From positions 1 through 30,028 of the IMG/VR virus record IMGVR_UViG_3300032225_001688: a stretch of DNA of 30,028 bases; one strand, 5' to 3'. The notes under the pieces are model-generated. The model was not told the origin of the DNA and made no database searches. It saw only the letters and a list, made by a program, of their open reading frames with translations. Below, piece after piece: positions 2,884 through 27,533 of this stretch; the first letter of the stretch is position 1; the number at the start of each line of letters is the position of its first letter. Position numbers and translations under genes: made by a program. Origin of the DNA: a virus. Its lineage: Duplodnaviria; Caudoviricetes.

Positions 2884-3030
2884 ATGTCAGACGAACTACA
2901 CCCAGACCTATTTGACGAAGACTTCGAAGAAGACTTTGAGGATGGTTTTGATGAGCTAGACCTCGATGAAGAGGATCTAGAAGAACTCGAAGCAGAGCTT
3001 GCAGATGATGAGCCTGTAGACGAGGCATAA
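2884..3030 (+). CDS. Ultra-acidic 48-aa protein (absent from ORF track)
   Basis: RBS TAAGGAG; MSDELHPDLFDEDFEEDFEDGFDELDLDEEDLEELEAELADDEPVDEA; 27 of 48 residues D/E, no K/R; followed by a terminator. Confidence 0.8.
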   Translation: MSDELHPDLFDEDFEEDFEDGFDELDLDEEDLEELEAELADDEPVDEA

Positions 3031-3050
3031 AAAACGCCAACACAAACATT

Positions 3051-3089
3051 AGGCCCCCCGCTCAATTAAGAGCGAGGGGCCTTTTGCTT
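3051..3089. terminator. Probable bidirectional intrinsic terminator between convergent units
   Basis: GGCCCCCCGCTC-AATTAA-GAGCGAGGGGCC stem, followed by TTTTGCTT on + and a T-rich run on -. Confidence 0.8.
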
Positions 3090-3096
3090 GTCCTAA

Positions 3097-3306
3097 TTAA
3101 CTAGCTAACACACGTCCTGAGCTATCGGTTAACTCAAAGTACTGTGTATCAGAGTCTTCTATATCTTCATAGCTCTCCAACTCATCTGGATATGTCTCGC
3201 CGTCTAACAACTGCTCGTATATATCCTTTGCATGGTCTGCATTATCGGCATCAAATACTAGTGTGCCGCTTTTTTGCATACTAAACATTACTTTGAACTT
3301 AGCCAT
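3097..3306 (-). CDS. Small acidic hypothetical protein
   Basis: 69 aa; RBS GGAGGAG; FDADNADHA resembles the VEADSLQEA motif of 4317..4511. Confidence 0.75.
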   Translation of the reverse strand: MAKFKVMFSMQKSGTLVFDADNADHAKDIYEQLLDGETYPDELESYEDIEDSDTQYFELTDSSGRVLAS

Positions 3307-3441
3307 TTATATATCTCCTCCGCAGCTGCAATGTCCACAACCGCATTGTTTCGTTTCTAGTAGTGATAGTTCTTCATTTTCTTTTACTTCTTTAATAAGA
3401 TCATTTACTGTCTTAAATGGAACTACGGTTTCCATATCCAT
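3307..3441 (-). CDS. 44-aa protein with Cys-rich C-terminus (absent from ORF track)
   Basis: MDMETVVPFK...KQCGCGHCSCGGDI; TAATG-coupled to the upstream gene; stop abuts the next ATG. Confidence 0.65.
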   Translation of the reverse strand: MDMETVVPFKTVNDLIKEVKENEELSLLETKQCGCGHCSCGGDI

Positions 3442-3728
3442 TAGGCCTCCCGCTTGAACGAAACTTCTCCACTGAAGTTTACCGGCTTCTCTTTGGCATC
3501 TAGCTCAGCCCCAGCTACCATCTTTATAGACTTACGTGGAGTTGTTGTTTGTACTACATCTTTAAGCCATCGTTTAGCAGCTGATACATTAGCCCATGCT
3601 GCAGAGTATGAGTCATACGAGGTTTCTATGCCGTCATCATTAAGGGTAACGGTTGCCAGCCATGCTCCACCCTTTGTTTGATTTTTTACGATACGTGCTT
3701 TGAACGTACTGGTTACTTTCTTAGCCAT
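3441..3728 (-). CDS. Hypothetical protein
   Basis: 95 aa; RBS AAGGAG. Confidence 0.8.
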   Translation of the reverse strand: MAKKVTSTFKARIVKNQTKGGAWLATVTLNDDGIETSYDSYSAAWANVSAAKRWLKDVVQTTTPRKSIKMVAGAELDAKEKPVNFSGEVSFKREA

Positions 3729-3738
3729 TTATTTCTCC

Positions 3739-3984
3739 TTATAGATTAATATCTTCGTTGAACCCTACTTGCTTCAGGTCACGTAAGATGTTTTTGCCAG
3801 CTCTTCGGTCCCCTAAGGACTGCGGTCCAAAGAAGACCACTTTCTTTGTCTTGGGGTTAACCACTTTTACGTGGTGTTTACCTGGAGTTATCGTGACCGT
3901 AAGGCCAGCTGTTTCCAGGGCAGAGACAAGTTTCCTTATCTCTTTGGTTTTTATATTAAGTTGTGCGAACAGCATTGTGTTCAT
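3739..3984 (-). CDS. HicA-like (dsRBD-fold) mRNA interferase
   Basis: IRKLVSALETAG..GKHHVKV...GDRRAGKNILRDLKQVGF matches the HicA-like pattern; RBS AAGGAG. Confidence 0.65.
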   Translation of the reverse strand: MNTMLFAQLNIKTKEIRKLVSALETAGLTVTITPGKHHVKVVNPKTKKVVFFGPQSLGDRRAGKNILRDLKQVGFNEDINL

Positions 3985-4047
3985 TTCTCCTTTTTAGTGT
4001 AAACTTGTAGATGTAAGCTCTTAAAGAACAGAGTTCACACCCTCAAG

Positions 4048-4070
4048 GCCCCGGGATTGCGCCCCGGGGC
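4048..4070. terminator. GC-rich hairpin after the stop of 4072..4269 (terminator, attenuator or stabiliser)
   Basis: GCCCCGGG-N7-CCCGGGGC; weak U-tract. Confidence 0.5.
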
Positions 4071-4071
4071 T

Positions 4072-4269
4072 TTACATTTCCTGGATGCTTTCTATATAAG
4101 ATTCTTCTCCAGGTCTATTTATGTGTGCTGTATTGACCCATTCCTTAAGATTTCTATCGTAGACTTTCAAAGACCACTCTCTATTATTTATATCGCTTTG
4201 ATCGTCTATTCTCCATTTCTTAAGCTTGACTCTGAACGTTACACGTAGGTCATATAGATCGTTATCCAT
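4072..4269 (-). CDS. Hypothetical protein
   Basis: 65 aa; RBS AAGGGGG. Confidence 0.7.
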   Translation of the reverse strand: MDNDLYDLRVTFRVKLKKWRIDDQSDINNREWSLKVYDRNLKEWVNTAHINRPGEESYIESIQEM

Positions 4270-4316
4270 TTATCCCCCTTCTCTTATTCCATTCTAGCGG
4301 GATTGTTTGTGTTGGG

Positions 4317-4511
4317 TCAAATCTCTTCGCCGTCCTCGTTGTATACGGATCCGATTTCTGTCCAACCAGCTTGTTTATCTTCCAACCATAGGTGGGACTC
4401 ATCATTGGTTATGGTGTCCTCTGCCCTATCGATAGCTTCTTGTAAGCTGTCTGCTTCCACCATATAGTCATAGATTATATGGTCGTGTATTGTTACTTTA
4501 TACGTTGACAT
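4317..4511 (-). CDS. Small acidic protein (DpnD/PcfM-like V-x-A-x-S-x-x-E-A motif)
   Basis: MSTYKVTI...YMVEADSLQEAIDRA. Confidence 0.7.
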   Translation of the reverse strand: MSTYKVTIHDHIIYDYMVEADSLQEAIDRAEDTITNDESHLWLEDKQAGWTEIGSVYNEDGEEI

Positions 4512-4980
4512 ATCTTAGCTCTCCATTCTCATTGATTACTGTGTTTCCTGCCTCACCGTAACATTCCTCAACTATTTTAGGGTCGAGTTGATCCCGCATT
4601 GTTACAAAGTGTTCAACCGGCCAAGCCATACGGAACACCCTTAGCAATAGTTGTGCTAAGGAATAGTTCTCGTCAAGGCGTAGCGCATAGTTCAATAGGC
4701 TGGTTGATCTCTCTGTATCACCCAGCTCATAGTAGTAAATAGCTTGCAGAGTTACAAATGGCACTAGATCTTCAGCGGGAGCATGCACACACAGATACTG
4801 CATGAACTTGACACCTTCTTCTAATGACCATCTGTTAGGTAAACCCATAAGCCAGTCACGCACTTGTAGGTCTGAGTTAACCGCTAAGATAACTGCTTCT
4901 AACTTCTCACCAGTTAACTCTATGTCATTGTTAAGTGAGTCTGTGATGAACTCACATGCTTGCTTGCGTGTTACTATCAT
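4498..4980 (-). CDS. DUF4192-like protein
   Basis: VRDWLM..HAP...TLQAIYYYELGD...ALRLDENYSLAQLL matches the C-terminal pattern of actinobacterial DUF4192 proteins. Confidence 0.65.
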   Translation of the reverse strand: MIVTRKQACEFITDSLNNDIELTGEKLEAVILAVNSDLQVRDWLMGLPNRWSLEEGVKFMQYLCVHAPAEDLVPFVTLQAIYYYELGDTERSTSLLNYALRLDENYSLAQLLLRVFRMAWPVEHFVTMRDQLDPKIVEECYGEAGNTVINENGELRYVNV

Positions 4981-5438
4981 TTTTTCTCCTTTTTCTCAAC
5001 TGAACGGAATGTACCTTCAGGCGTAGGCCATCGGTATGGTAGATCGTTTGGCACATTAAACCTGTAGTAATCAGGATTTTTGCGCCTTAGATTAGATTTG
5101 TGTGATCGGTGAATCTGTCGTTTACCCCACCACCATGGTTTGGCAAACGATGAGTCGGGGAAGCTATTCTTTTTCCATAACTCAAGCACCTGGGCACGTA
5201 CATTGTCTACAAACCCACGGCTCTCCCACTCATCACATATTGCACAGATATAGTTAGCAAGTGCACCTTCGTGCCCACGCCACATAACTGCTGCTGGGTG
5301 ATTGCGCCATCCTTTAGTTAGACCCAAGTTAGCCCTAAGTATTTGCAACCCTTCCACACGTTGCTTACCTAGTCTCTTATTGTCTAAGGACTTAGCTGTT
5401 TTAACTTCATCTGGCCAAGGTAAGAATGTATTTACCAT
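4977..5438 (-). CDS. Pyrimidine-dimer DNA glycosylase-like protein (MSMEG_6728 family)
   Basis: TFLP..LDNKRLGKQRVE..QIL..GWRNHPAAVMWRG..HRSHKSNLRRKNPDYY. Confidence 0.85.
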   Translation of the reverse strand: MVNTFLPWPDEVKTAKSLDNKRLGKQRVEGLQILRANLGLTKGWRNHPAAVMWRGHEGALANYICAICDEWESRGFVDNVRAQVLELWKKNSFPDSSFAKPWWWGKRQIHRSHKSNLRRKNPDYYRFNVPNDLPYRWPTPEGTFRSVEKKEKK

Positions 5439-5563
5439 AGTTTTGCCTCAGAACATGTTTTGCATACTGTATAGATATACCCATCTGGGTAAGTTACTTC
5501 GTACCCATCATCTGATAGTATATCTTTGCAGTTATAACAAGATATAAGTGCGTGGATTTCCAT
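5432..5563 (-). CDS. 43-aa CxxC..CxxC zinc-finger microprotein (absent from ORF track)
   Basis: MEIHALISCYNCKD...VCKTCSEAKLW; GGAGGACTAATG coupling. Confidence 0.65.
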   Translation of the reverse strand: MEIHALISCYNCKDILSDDGYEVTYPDGYIYTVCKTCSEAKLW

Positions 5564-5646
5564 TAGTCCTCCCCTTGTTCAATGCACTTATGGTTTTCCC
5601 ACAAGCCCACTTTCATTTCATCTCCACACCATGTACATATAGACAT
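5563..5646 (-). CDS. 27-aa CxxC..HxC microprotein (absent from ORF track)
   Basis: MSICTWCGDEMKVGLWENHKCIEQGED; GGAGGACTAATG coupling at both ends. Confidence 0.6.
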   Translation of the reverse strand: MSICTWCGDEMKVGLWENHKCIEQGED

Positions 5647-5807
5647 TAGTCCTCCAATAGCATTGGAATAAGATCCTCTGCATCATACTTAATCAATAGG
5701 TGTTTTACTTTTTCTTTGTTTACCTCATAAAGCTCTTCCTCCCTTTGCTTTAGCATTTCACTTAGCCATGTTGCCGGGTCTTCTTGCCTTAGTCGGTTAT
5801 TTATCAT
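5646..5807 (-). CDS. 53-aa hypothetical protein (absent from ORF track)
   Basis: MINNRLRQED...LIPMLLED; ATGA overlap with the upstream gene. Confidence 0.6.
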   Translation of the reverse strand: MINNRLRQEDPATWLSEMLKQREEELYEVNKEKVKHLLIKYDAEDLIPMLLED

Positions 5808-5995
5808 GCAAATGACGCAAACGTAATTTGGTTATCTTGAGCCCATTCTTCTGGCTCAGAGATAGATTCAATTGTTAAGTTGGCACCACCATCTGAAATG
5901 TCATCTGATGCATACAAAAGCCACATCTGGGCGCTTTCGTAGTCATTAAATGGGCCTATCAAAGTCTCAGTGAGACTATCGTATACTACGTGCAT
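5804..5995 (-). CDS. Hypothetical protein (start moved to MHVVY)
   Basis: RBS AAGGAG precedes ATG 5995; 63 aa. Confidence 0.75.
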   Translation of the reverse strand: MHVVYDSLTETLIGPFNDYESAQMWLLYASDDISDGGANLTIESISEPEEWAQDNQITFASFA

Positions 5996-6020
5996 TTTGT
6001 TCTCCTTTGTTTGTGTTGGG

Positions 6021-7874
6021 TTAGCGTCCACGCTTTTTGATTGCGCTCATTACTACAGACTTAGCAAATGGCAATAAATCTTTAGCTGTTTTAATTCTGC
6101 CAAAGACTTCAGCACCATGTTGCCAAGTTTTTTCATCTGTACCACGTTCTTTGTAAAACTCCATATCTCTATCATTCATGATTAGCGTCATGACTGTAAG
6201 GATTCCACGTTTAGAGATACGTTCAATGATTTCATCATTTTTAGCCACATCAAACTCACCATCGGTAATCATGAACAACATTTTATTCTTCTTACGAGAA
6301 GCCATTAGAAGTTGTTCAGCAGCAAGCAATGTGGAGTATGGATTAGTTCCACCATTGCCATAGATGAATTTGTATTGGGTTCGGTCCGCAAGTTCATTAC
6401 GGCCGTAGGCTAGTTCTGCTTTATCATCGAATGCATAGACTGTAACTGGTGCACCAATTTGTTCTAGCGCACGTTTGATAGTCCAACATGCAACTGATGC
6501 ATGCATATCATTACGTGCACCAGACATAGACCCTGACCTATCTACTAAGATCACAGCCTCTACATCAGCACCATCGCTACCTTCATCCCAACGATCAAAG
6601 GCTTGATCAATCTCACAGCCTCTGACTGCACGTAATACATTGAGCTTGCCACTAGCCTCTTCACGATGCCACATCGGCTCACATTCATCACGTAAGCGTT
6701 CTAGCTCACGTGCGAATTTACGATATAGGACCATTGATTCAGCAGGCACGGAAGTTATATCAAACTTACCTTGCTTCAATACATCATCATGTCTACCATC
6801 TCCACCCACGATAACTTTTTGCTTCGTCTTAACATCCTGCTGAACGTCTTTACGTTCTAGCACTGTCTGGATGGCATCCTCAAGCATTTCCTGGATGTCA
6901 TTTGGTATACCACCAACACTTTCCACATGGCCTGTGCCAGGTTCTGTAGAGTTATGTGGGGTTTGATTTTGCTGTGCCTGCTCTCGTATTGCTAGAGCTT
7001 CTTCAGCGGTTTGTGGTTGCGTTGGGTTGTTTGTGTTGGTGGGTTTACCTAGAGTAGGTTTAGACTGTACGTCTGTAGACTCAGCTTTACCCATACCACC
7101 AGCACGACCGGCATCCTTCTCCTGTGCCTTACCAGGTTCGGGACGACCTTTACCTACAGGGTCACGAGAACTACATCCGTTAGGACCTTGAGGCATTTTA
7201 GGAAGATTTAGATTTCCTAGTACCTCATCGTTCCAACGCTTGATTAGTTCCTGACCTTTAGCATAGTCACGTGGGAATGCCAGCACACGATATTGATCTA
7301 CAATATCTGCGATGACCGGCACGAGTTCAGGTTTAATAAACAGATCCCTGAATGCTTGCCTGATTTCAATCGGTAGATACCTGCGCCCACGCACCAGCAT
7401 ATAGTTACCTATAGCTTCTTCGGGTGTGCTTGATAACCACCGTGCTATTGTTGCTGTTAGATACGGTGCAATAGATGGATACCTAGCAACTAACAAAGTC
7501 TCAATACGTTGGTCTTCCAACATATTTGCAGACTCAAGATAGTCATTCTCAAGTACCCACTTCATGAACGTTGTACCTTTGCGTGGTGTATACAGGTGAT
7601 GAGCAAGCTCGTGATAATTGAGGCCGTTAACCTGAGTTAGCGTCTCAACATCCATCTCGTTAATCTGACTAGCATTAAAGGTAATAGATTGACCATCAGA
7701 CCACGCAGGTGCTGGGCCATCTTCTACTACCTTAATGATTACCGGATCTCCGGAGAGAACACGGTCAGCTTGTTCATACACACGACAGAGAGCGTTGAGT
7801 CTTACAGCACGTAGCTGTGTTTCCTCATTTTTCTCATTCATATACCACGATTCATTTAAGTCTTCTTGGAACAT
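6021..7874 (-). CDS. vWA (MIDAS) domain protein with N-terminal HEXXH region, CobT-like partner of the AAA+ ATPase
   Basis: YHELAHH, NMLEDQRIE, low-complexity linker, VDRSGSM, GGT, ITDG. Confidence 0.9.
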   Translation of the reverse strand: MFQEDLNESWYMNEKNEETQLRAVRLNALCRVYEQADRVLSGDPVIIKVVEDGPAPAWSDGQSITFNASQINEMDVETLTQVNGLNYHELAHHLYTPRKGTTFMKWVLENDYLESANMLEDQRIETLLVARYPSIAPYLTATIARWLSSTPEEAIGNYMLVRGRRYLPIEIRQAFRDLFIKPELVPVIADIVDQYRVLAFPRDYAKGQELIKRWNDEVLGNLNLPKMPQGPNGCSSRDPVGKGRPEPGKAQEKDAGRAGGMGKAESTDVQSKPTLGKPTNTNNPTQPQTAEEALAIREQAQQNQTPHNSTEPGTGHVESVGGIPNDIQEMLEDAIQTVLERKDVQQDVKTKQKVIVGGDGRHDDVLKQGKFDITSVPAESMVLYRKFARELERLRDECEPMWHREEASGKLNVLRAVRGCEIDQAFDRWDEGSDGADVEAVILVDRSGSMSGARNDMHASVACWTIKRALEQIGAPVTVYAFDDKAELAYGRNELADRTQYKFIYGNGGTNPYSTLLAAEQLLMASRKKNKMLFMITDGEFDVAKNDEIIERISKRGILTVMTLIMNDRDMEFYKERGTDEKTWQHGAEVFGRIKTAKDLLPFAKSVVMSAIKKRGR

Positions 7875-7883
7875 GTATCCCCC

Positions 7884-9290
7884 TTAAACTGTGGCTGATT
7901 GTGCTACCCATTGTGCCAACTGCTCATCAATGTTAACGTCTGCTTCCTTTTCAATCTCAACTGGGACTTCAATGCCGAAGTCAGACTTGATATTGTGTTC
8001 GTGTGTTTGGAATACCAAACGCACAGAAGCTTGCTCATCTGCTGAGAAGTGAGCAATAAAGTTCTCAACCGCAAACTCATAGCCAAGATCTTCATCATTG
8101 ATAAAGTCTTCAATTTCCATGAGCATGTTAGTTGAGATTGGTGTTTCATACTGACCCTTGGCTGCTTCAGAACGCAATTGCTTGACTAGAAGAAGCAAGG
8201 ATTTAGATGTGATAAGTTGTGACTCTACGTTGTCATCGTAATCCCATGACAATTGAATGTCAAAGCGATTACGCATAGCAAAGTTGAGTGGGGTTGTACC
8301 GATGTAATCTGGGTTCATGGTTGCAAAGATTGTTAAGTCTTCGTGAGCCACGATTGTTTCACCCATGTGGTCAAGCAGCGTAATGCTACGACGACCATCA
8401 GTGAGTGGATATAGAGTGGTGTAGATTTTAGGACTGATAAAGTTCATCTCGTCCAGCAATAGCACACCACCGTTGCGAACTACGTCAGTGACTGGGCCAT
8501 CAATCCACCCATAGCCACCCATACCATCAGGAATAAAGCCACCAAATAATTGGCGAGATTCCATAGATGCGTTACCAGATACTGTTGCCATACGAAGACC
8601 GCGTTCTGCGGCCCACGCTTCAACAGCTGTAGTCTTACCTGGACCGGTTGGACCATAGATAAGAACATTGATGTGTTTATCACGTGCTTTATCGAAAGTC
8701 TTAAAGTCTTGGACTCCGTAGACCTTGCGATGGATATAACGTTCAGCCAGTTTAATTGGAGGAACTGTTGCCAATGACACGGCAAACGTTGGGGATGCGC
8801 TCTGTTGAACAGGCGCAGCGTCTTCGTTTGTTTGTGTTGGAACAGTAACTACCAATGGAACTGTTGTGCTAGTTGAAGCACGGTTATCTGTTACGTATGT
8901 TTCCAATGAATCATCTCCCATACTAATTTGTTCGTAGAAGTTACAGAGAACATCTACTAGTGGTGTTGTATCTGTTGTTGGCTCAGCCTTAGAATGCTTA
9001 TCGCATGCCTTGGTGCCCAACACTGGAGAGTATCCCTTAGAGGTCATGGCACGATTATCTGCTGGTGTAACGTACACACCTACAGGCATTCGGGTCAATA
9101 TCTCTTCATCTAGGATCTCAGTTGTTAGTTCGTCTAGAGTAGTTTCCTCCCATTTATTTTGGGGGCCCTTTGTTCCATCCGTTAACCTTGAGTACACACG
9201 CACATTACCATCATGTGGTGTAATAAGAACTTGACGACGGTCGCCATCAAGACTCTCACTATATGACTCAGTGAACATTGCTATGTCCAT
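7884..9290 (-). CDS. MoxR/CbbQ/CobS-type AAA+ ATPase with long N-terminal extension
   Basis: Walker A GPTGPGKT, WIDGPV, Walker B LLLDEMN, ATMNP, RNRF; RBS GAAAGG. Confidence 0.92.
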   Translation of the reverse strand: MDIAMFTESYSESLDGDRRQVLITPHDGNVRVYSRLTDGTKGPQNKWEETTLDELTTEILDEEILTRMPVGVYVTPADNRAMTSKGYSPVLGTKACDKHSKAEPTTDTTPLVDVLCNFYEQISMGDDSLETYVTDNRASTSTTVPLVVTVPTQTNEDAAPVQQSASPTFAVSLATVPPIKLAERYIHRKVYGVQDFKTFDKARDKHINVLIYGPTGPGKTTAVEAWAAERGLRMATVSGNASMESRQLFGGFIPDGMGGYGWIDGPVTDVVRNGGVLLLDEMNFISPKIYTTLYPLTDGRRSITLLDHMGETIVAHEDLTIFATMNPDYIGTTPLNFAMRNRFDIQLSWDYDDNVESQLITSKSLLLLVKQLRSEAAKGQYETPISTNMLMEIEDFINDEDLGYEFAVENFIAHFSADEQASVRLVFQTHEHNIKSDFGIEVPVEIEKEADVNIDEQLAQWVAQSATV

Positions 9291-9313
9291 TTGTTACCTT
9301 TCTCTTGTTTGGT

Positions 9314-9550
9314 TTAATCGTCACCTAGAAGTCTGTCTTCCATAACGGTGGCGAGAGTGAACATGGCTTGCTTTTCTACAGGCCATTCTGTTATTAGATC
9401 AAACAATATGTCATGGTTAATTGCTTTATCCATAACTTTCTTGAACTTATCGACTGCATAATCCAAGAATTCTTCTCGCTCTTCTTCTGGAATCATGTCA
9501 AGAGTAAACTCTTGTTGTTCCATTCCTTCATCATCACATTCGTGACACAT
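9314..9550 (-). CDS. Acidic hypothetical protein (start moved to MCHEC)
   Basis: RBS GAAAGGG precedes ATG 9550; 78 aa. Confidence 0.7.
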   Translation of the reverse strand: MCHECDDEGMEQQEFTLDMIPEEEREEFLDYAVDKFKKVMDKAINHDILFDLITEWPVEKQAMFTLATVMEDRLLGDD

Positions 9551-9680
9551 AGCGTCCCTTTCTATTAAAAAGGTTGGTTGGCTTACCCCCGTTGCGCACA
9601 GGGACAGGACGTCTCCGCACATTATCTTCTCATCTCGCATACAACTAGTTACTTCGTACTACTAGCTGCGTGAGCCATAT

Positions 9681-9707
9681 AAATTACTCTGCTATAGGGT
9701 TTGTCAA
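9681..9707 (-). promoter_or_regulatory. Candidate internal sigmaA-type promoter
   Basis: TTGACA-N15-TAATTT on the minus strand; the spacer is short. Confidence 0.4.
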
Positions 9708-9765
9708 GTATGCTTGAGGTTGGCTTAGCCAACCAACCTTTGGATGTACAACTAATTAAATAAAC

Positions 9766-10062
9766 CTATAGTTGCCATCCGGTTGATACAGTTACGGATC
9801 CAGTAACATCATACTGATCCCAACTGACATTCTTTTGCCAACGGTCTGAGATAACTCTTCGACCGCTTTCCCGTGTAGATTCGTAGCAACCAAGATATGA
9901 CTCATGGTAATGCTCGTAATTTTTACGGCGGGTATTGTAGATTTCCAAGTACTTTTGTTGTGCTTGGATGCGACGACCACAATTACCGCACGAATTGATA
10001 TCTTGTATCAACTCGTCTTGTGATTGTAGTTCGTCTATTTCCAACTTATCCTCTTGGGACAT
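9766..10062 (-). CDS. Hypothetical protein with CxxC..HxH..C motif
   Basis: 98 aa; RBS GAAAGGG. Confidence 0.75.
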   Translation of the reverse strand: MSQEDKLEIDELQSQDELIQDINSCGNCGRRIQAQQKYLEIYNTRRKNYEHYHESYLGCYESTRESGRRVISDRWQKNVSWDQYDVTGSVTVSTGWQL

Positions 10063-10093
10063 TGGCTACCCTTTCTCGGGTTGTTTGTGTTGG

Positions 10094-10597
10094 TTAGTAT
10101 TTTCCTTGAGCTCGTTCAAGCTCAACGATATCTTTAGCACTAGCTGTGCTATTCATAAGCAAGTTGTTAAACGTTGCCACATCCATCTTCTTGCTTAAAG
10201 CCGATGCGACTGTGTTAATGAACGCACCTGCTTTACCTGGCTTATTACGTAGGATTGTTCGTGTAGCCAGAACAGTTTCACCCCATGCAAATGAGAGTGG
10301 TGCAAGATACTCACTATAAGATCTAATAGTGTTATCCATTCCATTTGGTGTGGATGCTACTGCTGCAGCCAATAACTGAAGAGCTCGATCTTTTGCTTCT
10401 CCAGATTCAGTATTGGTGATTAGGTCATTAATTACTGCGTCTCTAAAGTTTGTAGATATCTCAGAAATCTGTACTAGATTTACTGGAATAGATCCTCTCC
10501 TTAGTCTTTCAGCAGCAATTGTTGGATCGAAAGTTTCACTTGCCAAGTGATCTCCGATTGTCATGTTTGGATCGTAATTAAGTTGTAGGTCCAGCAT
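10094..10597 (-). CDS. Hypothetical protein, possible second DUF4192-like paralog
   Basis: FRDAVI..STP..LAPLSFAWGETVLA parallels VRD..AP..YYYELGD of 4498..4980. Confidence 0.6.
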   Translation of the reverse strand: MLDLQLNYDPNMTIGDHLASETFDPTIAAERLRRGSIPVNLVQISEISTNFRDAVINDLITNTESGEAKDRALQLLAAAVASTPNGMDNTIRSYSEYLAPLSFAWGETVLATRTILRNKPGKAGAFINTVASALSKKMDVATFNNLLMNSTASAKDIVELERAQGKY

Positions 10598-11324
10598 AAG
10601 CGGCTACTATCCTTTCTAGATCTGTTAGTGGTTTTTTTACTATATTGCCATTCTCTACCTTGATAGGCGAACCATCCCAAGCTAGAGAAACTCGTTTATT
10701 TCCGTAGTCACGTTTGCCTGTGCCACTACAGGGATAACATTCATACTCTTTAAAAAGTGTGTGACCTTTAGGATCTATGTTTCCATGATTACAGGGTAAG
10801 TAGTGAAAACGAGAGTAGTTATGTACTTTTATTGCGCCTTCATGTTCAGGGCATGAATAGATATTATTATCATTTACATTTCCCGCCCAACATGTGGCTG
10901 GATAACACACCCCATCTATACGACCAGACTGTTTACACATGCGACAGCCTTGTATTTTAGATGGTGTTAGTTTGGCATCTTGTTCATACAACTGAAACTT
11001 AAAGTTACGTTGCACAACTTCAACGCCTGTGTATTTAAAGATAGTATAACGAACACTCTGCGCACGTAATGGGTGCCATGTGCCGCCCCAATGCGTAGTT
11101 AGTGTGCCGGGTGAATGTAATGTTCTTGTATTGTCTGGATGTATAGTAATTAATGGGTGATTATTAACCCATGGCATTACTATCTGAATATCACTAGACT
11201 TATTAAACTTATTGGCATATTGAATACGATAACCTCGGTCATAAAGAGTACGTTCATACTTATTACGACCATTGTCTATATATGTTTGCCAATCGTTATA
11301 GGTTTTTTCGGCGTGGTAATACAT
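10578..11324 (-). CDS. Hypothetical protein with DnaJ-type CxxCxGxG zinc-finger repeats
   Basis: CRMCKQSG and CYPCSGTG. Confidence 0.75.
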   Translation of the reverse strand: MYYHAEKTYNDWQTYIDNGRNKYERTLYDRGYRIQYANKFNKSSDIQIVMPWVNNHPLITIHPDNTRTLHSPGTLTTHWGGTWHPLRAQSVRYTIFKYTGVEVVQRNFKFQLYEQDAKLTPSKIQGCRMCKQSGRIDGVCYPATCWAGNVNDNNIYSCPEHEGAIKVHNYSRFHYLPCNHGNIDPKGHTLFKEYECYPCSGTGKRDYGNKRVSLAWDGSPIKVENGNIVKKPLTDLERIVAAYAGPTT

Positions 11325-11626
11325 TAGTTAGCCTCCGCTGTTTCAAATAAGTTTACGGGGATTGGATCTTCCATGTCAACATACTGTAATTCGATGACAC
11401 GTTCGCGGTCGCGTTCTAGTGTTTGTGTTGGCTCATCATCTGTATACCATACGGATGTGAGAGATATCACAGAGGAGTTTGGTTTCAGCATCTTAAGCGC
11501 AAAGCCTAAGCCATCCATCAAACCACTGTAATAAGCGCGGGCACGTTGTTGTTCAATGCCGTGTAGTTCAGCATGCTCTTCTAGTATCTGCTGCTCAATA
11601 GCAGCAATAACTTTCTTCTTACGCAT
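11324..11626 (-). CDS. Hypothetical protein
   Basis: 100 aa; translationally coupled to its neighbours. Confidence 0.75.
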   Translation of the reverse strand: MRKKKVIAAIEQQILEEHAELHGIEQQRARAYYSGLMDGLGFALKMLKPNSSVISLTSVWYTDDEPTQTLERDRERVIELQYVDMEDPIPVNLFETAEAN

Positions 11627-11891
11627 TTAATAACTCCTGTAGTTTCTCAGGATCAAATGCTGGTGCGATGTTTGATGGTTGGTACACCTTGCCAGTTTTC
11701 CAATGTGGAATTGACTTGTGGTTCCAACGACCACCTGCTTTCTTCCAAGCCTCACGCTTGGCATTGCTCTCCGGACTGCGTCCATTGATGTGATCGAAGT
11801 TAGTCTTCGATGGTTGGGCAGGGCCTGGGTTTTTCTTTGCAGCCTTGCCATTTGGTCGGTTATCATTGCGATTACCTTTTGCTTTTACCAT
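11619..11891 (-). CDS. Basic hypothetical protein
   Basis: 90 aa; RBS GAAGGA. Confidence 0.7.
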   Translation of the reverse strand: MVKAKGNRNDNRPNGKAAKKNPGPAQPSKTNFDHINGRSPESNAKREAWKKAGGRWNHKSIPHWKTGKVYQPSNIAPAFDPEKLQELLNA

Positions 11892-11895
11892 TTAT

Positions 11896-12135
11896 CTATC
11901 CTTCCGGCGTAGATTGTGTGTGGATACTTTCCACTACACTGTGTAGCGTATCGATGCCATCATCCCACAGCATCAATGCTTCTTTGCGGGTGCAGTTGTG
12001 AAACAACACTGCTTCTGTTAAGAATAATAGTTTGTTTGTAGTATTGTCAAACGTTGGGGCGGGTACTTCTTGTTCTTGCCATACATACTGAGTGCCATTT
12101 GGCGTTTGTACATATTTACCTACTAGCTCTGTCAT
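11896..12135 (-). CDS. Hypothetical protein
   Basis: 79 aa; TAATG coupling, RBS GAGG. Confidence 0.7.
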   Translation of the reverse strand: MTELVGKYVQTPNGTQYVWQEQEVPAPTFDNTTNKLLFLTEAVLFHNCTRKEALMLWDDGIDTLHSVVESIHTQSTPEG

Positions 12136-12428
12136 TAGTTTTCTTCCTCATCATCTTCAAATGGATAGCTTTGAGGTTCAGGGTTTTTATCGTATGTGCC
12201 AGCGCTATTAGATACGCCTATGCTCTCTTCATCTAATCCTTCTAACATTATGTCTGCAATGCATGCACTCCAATTAATAGGTTGGTCAGGCTCTTGAGTG
12301 AGCATGTCTATTGCTGAAGGCACTTTAGAAGCCCAAGCAGATATAAGTTTTGCTGGGTCATGTACTTCAAACTCCAGTTCCATCTTTACAATGGTTGGTT
12401 CGTATTTACGTATCATTTTTATTTCCAC
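12135..12428 (-). CDS. Hypothetical protein with acidic tail
   Basis: GTG start, RBS GAAAGGA; 97 aa. Confidence 0.75.
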   Translation of the reverse strand: MEIKMIRKYEPTIVKMELEFEVHDPAKLISAWASKVPSAIDMLTQEPDQPINWSACIADIMLEGLDEESIGVSNSAGTYDKNPEPQSYPFEDDEEEN

Positions 12429-12453
12429 GGTAATTCCTTTCGGATATAGGTAA

Positions 12454-12484
12454 TGAGCAGTTTAGCCTTGTCATGCTCAGGACA
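12454..12484 (-). ncRNA. Candidate H-type RNA pseudoknot, copy 1
   Basis: UGUC-CUGAGCAU-GACA-AGGCUAAAC-UGCUCA; second copy at 15762-15789. Confidence 0.6.
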
Positions 12485-12545
12485 GGAGTTCTTTTACCTC
12501 AGGAAGAACTATAGAAACCAACCGCGCTAGGCGTTATTAAATTGT

Positions 12546-12995
12546 TTAGCGGATGAATGATGCCCAGGTTGATGATGAACTGATCTTGAATTCAGTATCA
12601 GTTGCACCATCAATTAGAGCGATAGCATTCTGGATTTGTTCGTATTCACTAACATCTTTATTGTAGTTAGTGTCTTTGTAAGCAGGCTTTTGCTCATATG
12701 ATGGGCGCTGACCAAGTGCTTCTTCAGCAACATCATTGTCAAATGAGTACTCAAGACTGAAACGATTACGATATTGATTTGGATTGACTGTCGTTTCTAC
12801 ACCTTTCACTGAGCTAATGTTTTGCTTAGCCCAAGTGATTGCTTTTTTATCCCATGCGTCTTGACGCTTTTCAAGAGTTGCATTGTCTTTTTCCCAAGCA
12901 ACTATCTCTGCGTCCATACGCTTGAGTGTGTCGTTTAGCTTCTTGAGCAAGTCTTTCTTAGCCCAAGTTGTTGCAATTACCTTGGTTGTAGCCAT
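12546..12995 (-). CDS. Hypothetical protein (start moved to MATTK)
   Basis: RBS GAAAGGA precedes ATG 12995; 149 aa. Confidence 0.8.
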   Translation of the reverse strand: MATTKVIATTWAKKDLLKKLNDTLKRMDAEIVAWEKDNATLEKRQDAWDKKAITWAKQNISSVKGVETTVNPNQYRNRFSLEYSFDNDVAEEALGQRPSYEQKPAYKDTNYNKDVSEYEQIQNAIALIDGATDTEFKISSSSTWASFIR

Positions 12996-13417
12996 GGTAA
13001 TCCTTTCTCTATACGTGGTCACACCACGGCTGTGATGTGCGTTTGTTTGTGTTGGGGCGTGTCTCCACATGCCCTGCATGGTTTATACTCCCCATACTAT
13101 GTGAGTTAGTTGCGTACTATCTATTCAGTACTTGAAGCGAGCCAATAAAGTGATGTACCCACGAAGTTACATCGAGTTTAAGGGGTGTCGGACCAGGGGG
13201 TCAGTAATCTATTTGGGTTACCTATTCTCATAGGGATGCCGTTCGAAGCCTTAGCAACTGCCTAACCTAACTGCGTTATTTCCTGTTAGTCTGTACGACT
13301 TGGATTGTTTATACAATCCGATAGACACACATCATGTATCTATCGCATCATATAGACAAAGATAAAGCCGGGGGAGCGTACCCTCACACGCTCACCCCGG
13401 CCTTGCCTAGTTATCTT
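12996..13417 (-). ncRNA. Candidate structured non-coding RNA or long leader (~420 nt)
   Basis: No credible gene; hairpins at 13367-13401, 13319-13345, 13302-13319, 13221-13234 (GAGA loop) and 13055-13074 (GAGA loop). Confidence 0.45.
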
Positions 13418-13645
13418 CTAGGCTTTATCACTAGGTTGTACGCCAAAGTCAATAACGACATGGCGTGCTACCTCTAAATATATTTCTGCATTAGAGAATA
13501 AATCTTCGGGGTGGTACAAACCTTCAGGTTTACATCCCCAATTCTGTTGTAGATAGTTCTTTAAACCAGGAACTAATCTATCTACGAACTGATCTGTTGT
13601 CATGTATCCACGAGCAATTAGTTCTTTATCAGATGGTCCAGCCAT
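13418..13645 (-). CDS. Hypothetical protein
   Basis: 75 aa; RBS GAGGAG. Confidence 0.75.
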   Translation of the reverse strand: MAGPSDKELIARGYMTTDQFVDRLVPGLKNYLQQNWGCKPEGLYHPEDLFSNAEIYLEVARHVVIDFGVQPSDKA

Positions 13646-13949
13646 GGCAATACTCCTCTTCTGTTTTTGGGTGCCAGTTTGTTATTGTTTTTTTAGGTAT
13701 GCCCAACCAATTTACAAATTCGTGGGCACATTTGTGACACAGCGTAAATTGCAGGGGGTTTTCTCCCCCTACATAGTAGATGTTGTCTACGAACATCATG
13801 TAGCCACCATCTAAGGATATGTCTAATGCCACAGGTATGTTTGGATCCATATAGTTTGGTCCATTTCTAAAAACTTGTGGGTCTTGACACCTATAGCATT
13901 CAACGATGGTGGTGGTTACGGCGGCGGGAATGTTTATGTTGGTGCTCAT
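13629..13949 (-). CDS. Hypothetical zinc-binding protein (CxxC...GGYxMFVD...CxxC)
   Basis: 106 aa; RBS GAGGTG. Confidence 0.75.
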   Translation of the reverse strand: MSTNINIPAAVTTTIVECYRCQDPQVFRNGPNYMDPNIPVALDISLDGGYMMFVDNIYYVGGENPLQFTLCHKCAHEFVNWLGIPKKTITNWHPKTEEEYCHGWTI

Positions 13950-14074
13950 TTAGGTAGCACCTCATTTATGATAGTAGATAGTTTCCTATCCATAATCTTG
14001 CAGCAATGACACATACACTCCTGCAAGCCTTGCTTTAACTCCCAGAGTTCATCATTGATATTCATCATCTTCAT
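13946..14074 (-). CDS. ~42-aa Cys-rich protein (absent from ORF track)
   Basis: MKMMNINDELWELKQGLQECMCHCCK...EVLPK; ATGA overlap with the next gene; start uncertain. Confidence 0.5.
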   Translation of the reverse strand: MKMMNINDELWELKQGLQECMCHCCKIMDRKLSTIINEVLPK

Positions 14075-14264
14075 CCCACCAGCCTTCCCAGTTATACCCA
14101 AAGGTAATCTCCCATCTAAGGAAATAGATAGTTATCTCTTTGTAGTATTTGTAAGGGCCTTCAATGGCTGCCCCAAATAAAATCCAAGGACTCCGTGATG
14201 ACATTGTACTTATAGTTTCTACCTCTGCGTAGAACTTACCTAACTTATATAATTTATTTGCCAT
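14052..14264 (-). CDS. Aromatic-rich hypothetical protein (start moved to MANKL)
   Basis: RBS GGAG precedes ATG 14264; 70 aa. Confidence 0.65.
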   Translation of the reverse strand: MANKLYKLGKFYAEVETISTMSSRSPWILFGAAIEGPYKYYKEITIYFLRWEITFGYNWEGWWDEDDEYQ

Positions 14265-14406
14265 TGGTACTCCAGTCTTTGAGATACTGCTGTGACTTGA
14301 GCGTGTGTACATCCATCTGTAACTGAATAACAATTGGGCGTAACATATCTATTGATGCCCGTAATGCTTCCAGTTCTTTCTCAAGGTCTTTCCGTTGTTT
14401 ACGCAC
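14254..14406 (-). CDS. 50-aa coiled-coil-like protein (absent from ORF track)
   Basis: GTG start with RBS GGAAGG; MRKQRKDLEKELEALRASIDML... Confidence 0.55.
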   Translation of the reverse strand: MRKQRKDLEKELEALRASIDMLRPIVIQLQMDVHTLKSQQYLKDWSTNGK

Positions 14407-14647
14407 TTAGTTTCCTTCCTGCTTGGAATGACATAGGTGAGAGATAACCTATGCCAAAGTATTCCTTACCACCCCATACTCCATAGAGTCCGGGTGTTTT
14501 CTCAGCGTATTCATTACACGCTGAAAGCAATGGGCAAGCCTTACACATAGCAATGGCTAGCTTTTTATTCGGGTCTGCCTTTGAGAGCGGAAAGAATATC
14601 TCCCGATCAGTCTGGGCACATAACTGTTCACCATTCATCTTAAACAT
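14399..14647 (-). CDS. whiB: WhiB-family Fe-S transcriptional regulator
   Basis: CAQTDREIFFP, CKACPLLSAC, YGVWGG. Confidence 0.93.
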   Translation of the reverse strand: MFKMNGEQLCAQTDREIFFPLSKADPNKKLAIAMCKACPLLSACNEYAEKTPGLYGVWGGKEYFGIGYLSPMSFQAGRKLSA

Positions 14648-14749
14648 TTACCATCTCCAGTCTTGGTCTTCTTGGTCGATTTTGTACTGCTCATTGATCA
14701 TGTATGTAAGCAAAACAATACTTACTATTGTAAAGATTACGAGTAACAC
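14648..14749 (-). CDS. 33-aa single-TM membrane peptide (absent from ORF track)
   Basis: GTG start, RBS GGGGAG; MLLVIFTIVSIVLLTYMINEQYKIDQEDQDWRW; stop abuts the whiB ATG. Confidence 0.55.
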   Translation of the reverse strand: MLLVIFTIVSIVLLTYMINEQYKIDQEDQDWRW

Positions 14750-14922
14750 ATCTCCCCCTCTCTCAGCAATTCAACTGCCAAACTTTCGAGGGATTTTTCG
14801 GGGGTCAACTTTGTAACTACACGCTTTGTACAGTGTGTAGAGGAGAAGATAACAACTTGACCGCTAGGTAACTTGGTAGTCACCTTGGTAGTGCTTCTAG
14901 TAAATGTGGCTGTACCTATCAT
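14737..14922 (-). CDS. Hypothetical protein
   Basis: 61 aa; RBS GGGAG. Confidence 0.65.
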   Translation of the reverse strand: MIGTATFTRSTTKVTTKLPSGQVVIFSSTHCTKRVVTKLTPEKSLESLAVELLREGEMCYS

Positions 14923-15065
14923 ACTAACTGCTCCCTTCCATAGTAATACTCAGTCTTAATAGCAGGGCTGAGTAGGCTGAAGTGTCTATCACACAGGTGC
15001 TGTGGGAATAGACCTTTGATCTCGATAGAGCAGGTTGCTCTCTCCTTACATAGCATGCACATCAT
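14919..15065 (-). CDS. 48-aa CxxC..CxxH zinc-finger protein (absent from ORF track)
   Basis: RBS AAAGGAGG; MMCMLCKERATC...HLCDRHF. Confidence 0.7.
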   Translation of the reverse strand: MMCMLCKERATCSIEIKGLFPQHLCDRHFSLLSPAIKTEYYYGREQLV

Positions 15066-15097
15066 AGTTTCCTCCTTTCTTGACTCCCCTCATAGGG

Positions 15098-15514
15098 AGT
15101 GAGAGATACATAGGGAAGCAAGTAACTACCAGAACTGGTTCGTACTCAAGTCCTATGTACCTTCCACAACCTACAAAAATGGAAAAAATCGCGGGGGATT
15201 ACTATCTACCAGATGACTTACCATTCTTAAGGTCATCACTATCAGGTAGAACAAAGGTAAAGCCTTGCTTAGGCATAAGGATAAGACGGAACTCATCTTG
15301 TATAGCCTGTCTAGCCTGTGCACTGCCACAAGATAGACAGGTGTGCCTACCTATCTCCCAGCGAGCCTGAGGTACAGGCTGTCCGCAACTAATACATTGC
15401 ATAATTACTCCTAACTACTATCTAGATAGATAGTGAGAGATACATAGACACCCTTGTAGTAAGCGCTTACCCAACTAGGCTACGAGTCGATGCTCTTGCC
15501 TATGTATCTTCCAC
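15098..15514 (-). repeat. Two long stem-loops sharing the same closing arms
   Basis: AGTGAGAGATACATAG at 15098-15113 and 15432-15447; CCTATGTAYCTTCCAC at 15152-15167 and 15499-15514. Confidence 0.8.
15202..15402 (-). CDS. DksA/TraR-type C4 zinc-finger protein
   Basis: CISCGQPVPQARWEIGRHTCLSC; RBS AGGAG. Confidence 0.7.
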   Translation of the reverse strand: MQCISCGQPVPQARWEIGRHTCLSCGSAQARQAIQDEFRLILMPKQGFTFVLPDSDDLKNGKSSGR

Positions 15515-15794
15515 CACATACCTGATAATAGATAAGCCACTAGCCTCCCAACCTGGTGTTATAACCAGACGGCTATAACGGCTAGAAGGCCAGTGGCCTA
15601 TCTTGGACATAGTGGTACTCAGACTCCAACCCCAACTGGCATACCACAATGCCGTGTCGCAGCACGGGTGTCATGGCAATTACTGCCCCCTATCTATGCC
15701 AATAGGTGAACTATGGACATAGATAGAAGGCGGGAGAGATATAAGTCTCCCCCGCCACCTATGAGCAGTTTATAGACCTACTCAGGTCTTGGGA
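15403..15794 (-). ncRNA. Candidate structured non-coding RNA (~390 nt), including pseudoknot copy 2 at 15762-15789
   Basis: Back-to-back long stems at 15433-15514, 15530-15603, 15685-15731 and 15729-15756; most mismatches become G-U pairs on the minus strand. Confidence 0.55.
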
Positions 15795-16346
15795 TTAGTT
15801 GGAAATCAACTCCGGAACCCCTAGATACTGAGTTTTAACAGACTCAAAGAGTTCTTGAGCCTTTAGAAATAACTCAGTTGCTGCTGGTGATGTAACCAGC
15901 GGCACCTTCTGTACCTTTTCCACCGCTGCTACTAGACTATCCATAGCATCAATAGTGGAAGTGCCGTTCAAGGCATTGGTATTAGCCTCGTCTAGCGTCT
16001 CTTGCTTATCAAGATCAGAAACGCGAGCGAGTTCAGCCTTCATAGCAGCAAGGTTAGATGAAACCTTGATGCGGTTGAAGTTCTTGGACTTACCAAGGAA
16101 GGTAGCGTTGAGTGACTTGACATCTATCTCAGGACATACTGAGAGGATGTAGCCGCCGACAGCATTACCAGCGTTGATAACGCCCTTGAGACCAACAGCA
16201 ATTAGGTGCTGTGGGGTGATAGCAGCGTCCTTCAGGAATGTGTTATCCCTGAAGTCCTCCATCATCCACGCCTTCTTGCCGTTGTGCTTTGCTACTGCTG
16301 ATGTCACAATGGTCTGTGAGTCAGCAGATAAAATGGCGAGAGCCAT
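15795..16346 (-). CDS. Hypothetical protein, first gene of the leftward module (start moved to MALAI)
   Basis: RBS-like GAAAGCAGGT precedes ATG 16346; the upstream extension lies in a hairpin; 183 aa. Confidence 0.75.
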   Translation of the reverse strand: MALAILSADSQTIVTSAVAKHNGKKAWMMEDFRDNTFLKDAAITPQHLIAVGLKGVINAGNAVGGYILSVCPEIDVKSLNATFLGKSKNFNRIKVSSNLAAMKAELARVSDLDKQETLDEANTNALNGTSTIDAMDSLVAAVEKVQKVPLVTSPAATELFLKAQELFESVKTQYLGVPELISN

Positions 16347-16379
16347 TTGGCACCTGCTTTCTAGGTAGTTGGACACACG

Positions 16380-16436
16380 CCAACATACCTCCCCCACCTA
16401 CCGACCCGAAAGCCGATAGATGAGAGAGGTTGTTGG
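16380..16436 (-). other. 25-bp RNA hairpin in the 5' leader of the leftward module
   Basis: CCAACAACCUCUCUCAUCUAUCGGC-UUUCGG-GUCGGUAGGUGGGGGAGGUAUGUUGG; 5 G-U pairs, 1 bulge. Confidence 0.7.
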
Positions 16437-16697: not shown

Positions 16698-16811
16698 ATG
16701 GATGACAAAGAGCGTCTTAAGCATTGGACATGTTGTTTTTGTGGGAAAATTTATCCCGTTCCAGGATTAGCGAGGGATTGTGAGCTTAAATGCCTAGAGA
16801 AAAGTTCATAG
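16698..16811 (+). CDS. 37-aa Cys-rich protein, possibly leaderless (absent from ORF track)
   Basis: TATACT at 16684-16689, 8 nt before ATG; WTCCFCGKIYPVPGLARDCELKC. Confidence 0.6.
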   Translation: MDDKERLKHWTCCFCGKIYPVPGLARDCELKCLEKSS

Positions 16812-25080: not shown

Positions 25081-25721
25081 TGGCTAAGAAAAAAGCCTGG
25101 GTTCCTGGAGAACATTCCGACCCTGCATCACCTATTGCTAAAAAGTTAAGTGCTGAGCCAGGTCGTTTAGTTGACGCACCAAAAATAATAAAGCCTAAAA
25201 ACCCGGGTATTGGTGCAGTATCTTATATTGAGTCTCAAGATGGGCCATGGGACGATGAAAAAGGTGATAAAGAAGTTTTAGGTCGTTATGTACATTTATT
25301 TAAGGGTTTTCATGACTCACGTCCTGAAGATATTGATATGAACGCACTAGGGCAACATTGGACTATTGATCCAAGTACTGCTGAGGACTATGCTACTCAT
25401 GGAGAAGATGGTACGTGGAAACAAGGAACTAACCATACTGTTTTAGAGGGTAGAGTACTTAAAGATCATTTAATGAGTGATGAAGATATGACAGATAAAT
25501 TTAGAAATGACCATAGTTTGCGAGCCGGAGTTGGCTTTAGAAACGCATCTCGTGAAGTACCTATTCTAAATGGTAAGCCTATTCATATAGTTGCTACCCA
25601 CCATATAGTTACAGATGAGAATCGTAAACCTATAAGCTCAGTACGAAAAGAAACTACTAGTTTAGTTGGCATGACTAATCCAAGTAAAAGAATGGAAAAG
25701 AGAAATAATAATGACAACTAA
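25080..25721 (+). CDS. Hypothetical protein, possible ADP-ribosyltransferase-like fold
   Basis: VHLFKG..GQHWTIDPSTAEDYA..VLEGRV..SREV; the ORF is solid, the fold call is tentative. Confidence 0.55.
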   Translation: MAKKKAWVPGEHSDPASPIAKKLSAEPGRLVDAPKIIKPKNPGIGAVSYIESQDGPWDDEKGDKEVLGRYVHLFKGFHDSRPEDIDMNALGQHWTIDPSTAEDYATHGEDGTWKQGTNHTVLEGRVLKDHLMSDEDMTDKFRNDHSLRAGVGFRNASREVPILNGKPIHIVATHHIVTDENRKPISSVRKETTSLVGMTNPSKRMEKRNNNDN

Positions 25722-26007
25722 GAAAAAAGCAGTAGCTGGCGGCAAAGAATACAAAGGCTCTGCTGCTAATGGTGGTCGTAAGATTATTGTTGAGCACTAT
25801 AAAGATAAAGACGGTAACTGGAAAACTACTTCTAAAAACGCTGCCAAAGCTAAGTATGAGAAGAAGCACGGTAAGCTACCAAAAGGCACAGACGTAGATC
25901 ATAAAAATAACAACCACGATGACGACTCCGCCAAAAACCTGCGCCCGCTCTCCCACGGTAAGAACACCGCTAAGGAGAACAAGCGCAGGGTTGGCAAGAA
26001 GTCTTAG
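25711..26007 (+). CDS. Small basic HNH-like protein
   Basis: DVDHKNNNHDDDSAKNLRPLSHGKN. Confidence 0.75.
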   Translation: MTTKKKAVAGGKEYKGSAANGGRKIIVEHYKDKDGNWKTTSKNAAKAKYEKKHGKLPKGTDVDHKNNNHDDDSAKNLRPLSHGKNTAKENKRRVGKKS

Positions 26008-27307: not shown

Positions 27308-27533
27308 GCGTAAAAGTAAAACTGTAAAAGAATTAACTAAAGTTCAACGTAGAGTAAATTCTTTGTCTACTCAAGAGCTTCTTACTTGGACGGATCAAAT
27401 TATGTATTCTATTGGGCGTAATCTATCCTCTTGGCAAAAAACACAGTACAAAGATAGCTTAGCAGAGGCACGCTTAGGTGCAGAATCTCTTAGCGCTATT
27501 TTAAATACCCTTAATGAAAGACATGGCCTGTGA
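27294..27533 (+). CDS. Hypothetical helical protein upstream of the terminase (start moved to MKIFK)
   Basis: 79 aa; GTGA overlap with terL. Confidence 0.7.
   Translation: MKIFKRKSKTVKELTKVQRRVNSLSTQELLTWTDQIMYSIGRNLSSWQKTQYKDSLAEARLGAESLSAILNTLNERHGL

Follow-up and report, generated by a model that had tools for sequence, protein, structure and literature searches.

A small HNH_3-family protein as candidate reader of an evenly spaced 12-mer array in a tailed-phage genome

A stretch of viral DNA of 30,028 nucleotides (nt) from a member of the Caudoviricetes (IMG/VR record IMGVR_UViG_3300032225_001688, positions 1 to 30,028; the whole stretch is termed the window, and positions refer to it) carries repeated copies of the 12-mer CCAACACAAACA (the word) across a presumed early gene block. 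This raises the question of what reads the array, and for which purpose. An initial annotation of the sequence had proposed a module-wide control system read by a phage protein. A candidate for this reader is now put forward, a protein of 98 amino acids (aa) of the HNH_3 family with an intact I-HmuI-like active site. On comparative sequence data it appears moderately probable that the word is the recognition site of this small protein, with a predicted nick of one strand at each copy.

Eight exact copies were located, one on the plus strand and seven on the minus strand, as well as one copy with a single mismatch (CCAACATAAACA); positions and gaps agreed exactly with those given in the initial annotation. 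No further site with 0–1 mismatches was present elsewhere in the whole window, and 100 dinucleotide shuffles of the window yielded no exact match, which bears out the claims that the word is absent from the remainder and exceeds chance. The block and the copies are as follows.

3097..16397, minus strand: counter-oriented, presumed early, gene block with MoxR-type AAA, vWA, WhiB, pyrimidine-dimer glycosylase and small unknown genes
3037..3048, plus strand: word copy where the converging RNR-side transcript ends; the sole plus copy, in the same place in every clade locus reaching there
3051..3082, no strand assigned: terminator-like hairpin (13 pairs, 10 G-C) at the convergent junction closing the early block
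4291..4320, minus strand: promoter-like site of sigma-A type, TTGACC-18 nt-TAGAAT; the 4304 copy overlaps the -35 element and fills the spacer
4304..4315, minus strand: word copy in the promoter spacer, 1 nt past a stop codon
6008..6019, minus strand: word copy between the vWA stop codon and the next ribosome-binding site
7028..7039, minus strand: word copy in the vWA linker, read as TNTN; PTQT frame in relative L002
8829..8840, minus strand: word copy in the AAA linker, read as PTQT; four codons all invariant in 14 homologues
10082..10093, minus strand: word copy immediately past a stop codon
11420..11431, minus strand: word copy within the 100-aa open reading frame (ORF) 11324–11626, read as PTQT; absent from L004, where a copy stands about 600 nt further upstream in its place
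13044..13055, minus strand: word copy in the leader of a gene whose end is at 12546
13931..13942, minus strand: copy with one mismatch, CCAACATAAACA, where a 106-aa ORF starts; this variant was seen again in relatives

As had been noted before, three copies (4304, 6008 and 10082) begin 1, 1 and 0 nt past a stop codon, and the coding copies are read in two frames, PTQT and TNTN, two of them in the AAA and vWA linkers. The plus copy begins 6 nt past the stop codon of a 48-aa acidic ORF (2884–3030) and ends 3 nt ahead of the terminator-like hairpin. The gaps between copies have a mean of 1362 bp and a coefficient of variation of 0.22, which is more even than expected from uniform placement between the end copies (P=9e-5); even spacing was found also in G001, G002, G006 and G017 (P<=2.5e-4), independent of gene borders. 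A different element, a hairpin with a loop ending in TATAAA or GCTAAA, recurs at 15760–15790, 12455–12482 and 13075–13100 (minus strand), in front of several early genes as well as of copies of the 13044 class; it has no Rfam match.

Comparison of 17 clade loci, in which AAA is 69–91% identical, showed that the array was kept throughout, while individual sites were gained and lost. In the AAA gene, no other run of invariant nucleotides is as long as the word across 14 homologues, in which a single codon was kept in just 31 of 250 invariant-residue columns; the vWA linker carries the word in two frames across relatives. These data point to selection on the word at the nucleotide level, even inside genes, in line with the initial view that the signal is nucleic acid rather than protein. 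A promoter-like TTGAC[CT]-17/18-TANNNT surrounds the 4304-type copy in 16 of the 17 loci, with varying TANNNT hexamers and, in one of the 16, a degenerate word. When the pattern TTGACY plus word was searched in viral contigs, 42 loci were obtained, of which 12 belong to clade members and the other 30 are single matches by chance.

The suggestion of a module-wide signal was corroborated by complete relatives of the clade. G001 (99.8 kb; sheath, baseplate, PolA, RecA and primase genes) has nearly all genes co-oriented except one block of about 14 kb, its sole long block against the main strand and of the same counter-oriented early type, and this block holds all 8 of its copies; in G006 the corresponding figure is 12 of 12. 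The name "early" is based on gene content and layout. One or two extra copies outside the block were present in G003, G004, G008, G009 and G010, all six on the local sense strand.

Which protein could read the word? Profiling of the genes of G001 singled out an HNH protein of 96–98 aa, which is encoded in the window as follows.

25711..26007, plus strand: basic protein of 98 aa from the HNH_3 family, candidate for reader and nickase; the large terminase gene follows about 1.5 kb downstream
27530..29107, plus strand: large terminase gene, context for the HNH gene

Sixty frames of G001 were shared by 14 or all of the 15 word-bearing genomes; the HNH frame, present in 15 of 15, was the only one of them absent from all three complete word-less genomes, and a repeat of the screen with G479 left one of 52 frames, again HNH. 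The word-less genomes (G474, G476, G019) do not form one clade, each of them neighbouring word-bearing genomes in a tree of PolA, SNF2, DnaB and primase. Conversely, long records chosen by their HNH gene held 6–15 word copies in 13 of 13 cases, and five further ones held 9, 2, 5, 8 and 1 copies, the record with a single copy being 51% complete; G457 contains 2 canonical copies and four of CCGACACAAACA. Seven records chosen by capsid alone served as a sample not picked via HNH: G479 and G480 carried both word and HNH, G474, G476 and G477 (79% complete) neither, and G478 a divergent HNH and no canonical word; the seventh is discussed below. An unrelated 40-kb phage, G493, possesses the HNH and 8 related words, all on one strand and antisense to the genes, and a related word was its top de novo word.

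Other candidate readers were rejected: a BldC-like HTH protein occurs in G001 alone, a MerR-like HTH protein and WhiB are present also in word-less G019, and a HicA-like ORF, a 95-aa ORF (3441–3728) and other early genes are missing from word-bearing genomes. The HicA-like ORF (81 aa; 3739–3984, minus strand; so designated by eye, phrog_2089) lies downstream of the word-holding promoter and was found in 11 of the records profiled, whole or partial. When core genes were scanned column by column for co-variation, no gene stood out.

The spelling of the word follows the type of HNH protein. A variant word was predicted for G478 ahead of the search, and this genome, with its divergent HNH, contains CCGC[AC]ACAAAAA nine times, all in sense orientation and in the same layout, as its top de novo word. 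As predicted, five of five further records with a G478-type HNH hold CCGC[AC]ACAAAAA (9, 8, 4, 4 and 1 copies), and none of the five has the canonical word. In G016 a third HNH type, encoded in the last 1.7 kb of the record, is paired with the word CCAACCTAACAA. At the level of residues, Y49 goes with the word start CCAAC and K49 with CCGC, while E89 goes with the word end ..AAAC and G89 with ..AAAAA; with the HNH of G490 (H47, Y49) both word starts are in use. As a separate observation, G478-type HNH genes often hold their own target word in the codons of an ARHKK helix (G483:43756, G485:16534, G482:50405, G484:33289).

The HNH of the window yielded PHROG HNH hits with E 2e-6, and its homologues carry Pfam HNH_3; the family comprises 2171 clusters, with no match among 50,697 cultured phage records. 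Residues D63, H64, N76 and N85 align with residues 74, 75, 87 and 96 of I-HmuI, the Asp-His pair being the general-base motif. Since both members of this pair are kept in all of 156 distinct homologues, and the two Asn residues in 155 and 154 of them, the protein is probably catalytically active. It is a free-standing ORF of 98 aa, compared to 174 aa for 1u3e, although no search was aimed at longer fused forms. Among the main-strand genes of the window it lies 1.5 kb ahead of the terminase, and its position shifts in relatives; from this place before the terminase, late expression may be inferred.

The following picture would then emerge. The HNH protein very probably binds the word directly and would recognise each copy; given binding, cutting at the word is considered probable. 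With one strand nicked at each copy, programmed single-strand breaks would follow one another in the early block at intervals of about 1.4 kb, and these interruptions would be made late in infection, similar to those of T5, tf and phiKMV. The even spacing, which continues through the two largest genes, suggests a length-based physical role, and therefore swivels are tentatively favoured as the purpose, if nicking takes place, at rather less than even probability: nicks could keep any torsionally closed part of the early block, which is heavily transcribed, shorter than 2 kb, either during packaging or in the first minutes after entry. Ranked next, and more doubtful, is a role in shutting down early transcription, with nicks located in the promoter spacer and at unit ends; priming of recombination or processing of terminal repeats or pac sites would take the rest.

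Several points weigh against assigning the word to a nicking HNH. I-HmuI was the top PDB match both by sequence (E 0.18) and by fold (E 0.45), but these matches are weak, both being below significance, and the model of the HNH is itself weak (pLDDT 63). Word and HNH were found together in 29 near-complete genomes compared to 3 with neither (P=2e-4), but most of these genomes were chosen by HNH or AAA and are related; complete negatives number 3, and in the subset not chosen by HNH or AAA the Fisher test gave P=0.1. Relatives by descent share both word and HNH in any case. Metagenome HNH loci (26 of 28 examined, two truncated loci being left out; 207.5 kb) contained 43 family words versus 2 reversed controls, but some of these loci are near-duplicates, and the words used for the scan had been seen before. 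The seventh capsid-chosen record, G475, has a variant word, and HNH is not in the record, which ends before the syntenic place. Family HNH genes occur without a detectable dispersed word in G492 (complete, 40 kb) and G494 (87% complete), both phages of 35–40 kb, where the word forecast from the residue code was not found either; no word was detected in HNH-bearing G491 (36% complete) or in the 20-kb locus L648, and HNH-bearing G488 (90% complete) has just 3 copies with a CC start. Furthermore, the HNH gene varies in position in distant relatives, so that its link to the terminase need not be a fixed one, and both strands are used in the window, unlike the known one-strand interruption sites. 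Other repeated, near-palindromic words were seen in early regions of HNH-bearing phages of 33–40 kb (G492:34184–37405 and 150; L639:7000–12400); they are likely ordinary operators.

A host-read signal was looked for in 401 Actinomycetes genomes, a tally which includes the three unpublished genomes G286, G030 and G327 as counts alone. The word was not enriched over its reversed control in this set, outside of which the true host may lie; a chromosomal signal of the Chi or KOPS type was rejected on this result. A cluster of words in G245 was also rejected as a host signal, since it corresponds to duplicated NRPS-like modules. The lack of enrichment supports the initial assumption of a phage-encoded reader; the type of reader differs from what had been envisaged, the candidate being an HNH nuclease and not a repressor or antiterminator.

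Among 80 RNR-related loci, distant myophages have the same canonical word in other layouts. In G012, G013, G469, G472 and G473 the word is antisense to early cassettes and directly past terminator hairpins, and in G493 it is antisense as well. Inverted word pairs, 27 in total, were found in ten records or stretches; all of them face outward and occupy inter-cassette spacers, perfect inward stems of 8–15 bp, ending at the word's outer end, are enclosed by 15 of them, and outward pairing is <=2 bp throughout. Scattered copies are present in late genes, e.g., terminase and scaffold, mostly in sense, and in long ORFs of myophage records 69 sense and 11 antisense copies were counted. Thus, the earlier rule that every copy reads in the sense of local transcription holds for the window's clade, of which sense polarity is a trait, and is not universal. 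Concerning strands, 8 sites of the window are on minus and 1 on plus, and G011 has a distribution of 6/7, while all sites are on one strand in G012 (10/10), G013 (9/9) and G493 (8/8).

Some further elements were noticed around these copies. A copy stands directly past a hairpin in a pre-gene gap at G012:88636, G014:67573, G015:77371, G479:71658, G480:16518 and G485:30474, and where mapped, the gap with such a hairpin-adjacent intergenic copy follows the major capsid gene. At borders of early cassettes in distant relatives, a palindrome which we take to be parS-like and paired words which we take to be DnaA-box-like adjoin the word (L105:18490–18530 in G011, L106:18930–18990 in G012, and G011:49147–49200). 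The early cassettes of these relatives also have GTTA[TC]-n6 repeats and GACAC words, presumably resembling MtrA/GlnR and WhiA sites.

The main rival to nicking is a non-cutting roadblock. The same HNH protein could be a bound, polar barrier to transcription, comparable to stoperators or to Tus-Ter, with cutting rare or secondary; it would repress the promoter whose spacer is filled, shut off or insulate the early block, and reinforce terminators. A DNA roadblock by bound HNH is conceivable, although as the principal function it is considered unlikely. It would be consistent with the copy in the conserved promoter spacer, as operators of L5 are placed according to PMC6550527 and PMC9283540, with the vicinity of copies to terminator hairpins in several independent places, and with the outward orientation of 27 of 27 inverted pairs in inter-cassette spacers. 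The target words within G478-type HNH genes would suit autoregulation, and tandem copies 12–15 nt apart were found near HNH in 40-kb phages. The excess of sense copies in long ORFs could be cited as well, but it is partly a coding effect, antisense copies forcing CLCW, VCVG or FVL. Sense copies in such late genes as terminase and scaffold, the flip of orientation versus transcription between clades, and the retention of catalytic residues in nearly all 156 homologues argue against a barrier.

It is rather improbable that word and HNH constitute a packaging or genome-end module, i.e., processing of pac or terminal repeats together with the terminase, or nick-primed replication or recombination, the early block being simply where ends are made. 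The distance of 1.5 kb between HNH and terminase in the window would fit, since terminase-linked phage HNH proteins are described as strand-specific nickases in PMC3592412 and T5-like phages are stated in PMC10194208 to have a nicking endonuclease next to the terminase; in G493, 4 of 8 copies are located between the HNH gene and the start of the terminase, and the inward stems enclosed by 15 of the 27 inverted pairs are such as nick-and-fold-back repair could yield. For that purpose, on the other hand, one or few sites would suffice, not an even array kept inside coding linkers. Site orientation versus gene order varies between clades, three complete relatives package without word or HNH, and the HNH is devoid of the CxxC zinc motifs of the terminase-linked proteins treated in PMC3592412.

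An RNA element or an element read by the host (nut/boxA-like reloading, RNase site, Chi/KOPS-like), with HNH as a hitch-hiker, appears no less improbable. Strict sense polarity and the placement just past stop codons in the window's clade would be in its favour, as would the canonical word being unchanged across very divergent phages and the HNH-bearing but word-less G492 and G494. The word changes, however, with the HNH alleles, and it recurs together with HNH in an unrelated 40-kb phage; there was no real Rfam match, in addition to the lack of enrichment in Actinomycetes genomes. The RNA-tag or nut-like reading offered in the initial annotation is unlikely because polarity is not universal, the word being antisense in whole clades. 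A replication fork trap, analogous to Tus-Ter, was judged weak, since backup sites would be rarely used and layouts differ between clades.

If the array is a set of nicking sites of the HNH protein, its closest known counterpart would appear to be the site-specific single-chain interruptions of T5/BF23, phiKMV-like phages and Pseudomonas phage tf, the function of which is given as unclear in PMC3517423. The features in common are, as far as described there, multiple non-palindromic consensus sites within the phage's own genome, concentrated unevenly in one part, which vary between related phages; the genes behind the T5 interruptions, sciA and sciB, lie in the late region, and the HNH gene may have a comparable place. 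Interruptions were demonstrated in those phages, and the sites reported in PMC3517423 are all on one strand, whereas here nicks are predicted and both strands would be concerned. In addition, the sites in the window run through the early block at regular intervals and are associated with promoters and terminators, and a residue-to-base pattern makes it possible to follow the cognate enzyme family.

With I-HmuI and I-BasI (PMC3017599; PDB 1u3e) the HNH protein shares the catalytic motif VDH..N..NL..N, a putative HNH_3-type fold and, in the word, a presumed asymmetric site; I-HmuI is reported to nick one strand (PMC3017599). That enzyme has 174 aa, is intron-encoded and has a degenerate homing site of 24 bp, whereas the protein of the window is free-standing, with a presumed site of 11–12 bp in many copies in its own genome. 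The Asp-His pair and the downstream Asn are present; an intron-encoded location, homing, and a long site with a C-terminal DNA-binding domain are not seen in this 98-aa ORF. The terminase-associated HNH nickases HK97 gp74 and N.phiGamma are likewise small phage proteins encoded near the terminase; strand-specific nicking is described for them in PMC3592412, with relief of supercoils proposed as one function. Those are zinc-ribbon proteins with sites of 3–7 bp beside cos (PMC3592412); the protein of the window has no CxxC, a longer presumed site and a selected target array.

Stoperators of cluster A phages (L5, Bxb1, TipsytheTRex), as presented in PMC6550527 and PMC9283540, resemble the word in being asymmetric repeats of 12–14 bp, one of them in a promoter, and in the window's clade also in their orientation with transcription. 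The sequence of the 4304 copy has the character of an operator in a promoter. In contrast to 20–30 genome-wide stoperators, 8–12 sites in one block were found in G001, G002, G006 and G007, often inside ORFs and at even spacing, and orientation is not along transcription in the six relatives with antisense words named above. The candidate reader is a nuclease; Pfam searches of 68 proteins of G001 and 39 of the window detected neither an integrase nor cI, a stoperator repressor or a NusG paralogue. The array resembles programmed self-nicking, except for the use of both strands, and does not constitute a stoperator system. A literature search, covering mainly journals open without subscription, brought up no paper on the word or the HNH family.

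The window contains, besides others, genes for class II RNR, MoxR-type AAA, vWA, WhiB and terminase. The phage family to which it belongs has genomes of about 100 kb. The best cultured matches of its AAA are from Brevibacterium and Gordonia phages, which makes actinobacteria the likely hosts; within stretches of 41 kb, these cultured phages with a related AAA gene have no array. A pair of paralogous unknown ORFs (16790–17284 and 18222–18722), conserved across the family, opens the main-strand region. A queuine tRNA-ribosyltransferase-like gene (G001:10410–11888; phrog_887) is present in all family genomes checked and hints at 7-deazaguanine modification of DNA; the canonical word is devoid of G on its own strand.

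Taken as a whole, the system could perhaps be a mobile two-part device, consisting of a minimal, domesticated HNH nickase and an array of evenly spaced, retargetable sites, which has spread between unrelated actinophage families; this idea is speculative. Lytic phages would thereby write timed breaks or roadblocks across the early module, early transcription would be switched or relaxed, and the target word could be altered by few residue swaps. A compact nuclease with a site of 11–12 bp and natural variants of specificity would be useful as a scaffold for a rare-cutting nickase. What phages gain from nicking their own DNA at fixed sites has been an open question since T5, and the function is called unclear in PMC3517423. 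The natural series of enzyme alleles, matched words, clean losses and varied layouts makes this question testable with a protein of 98 aa and short duplexes.

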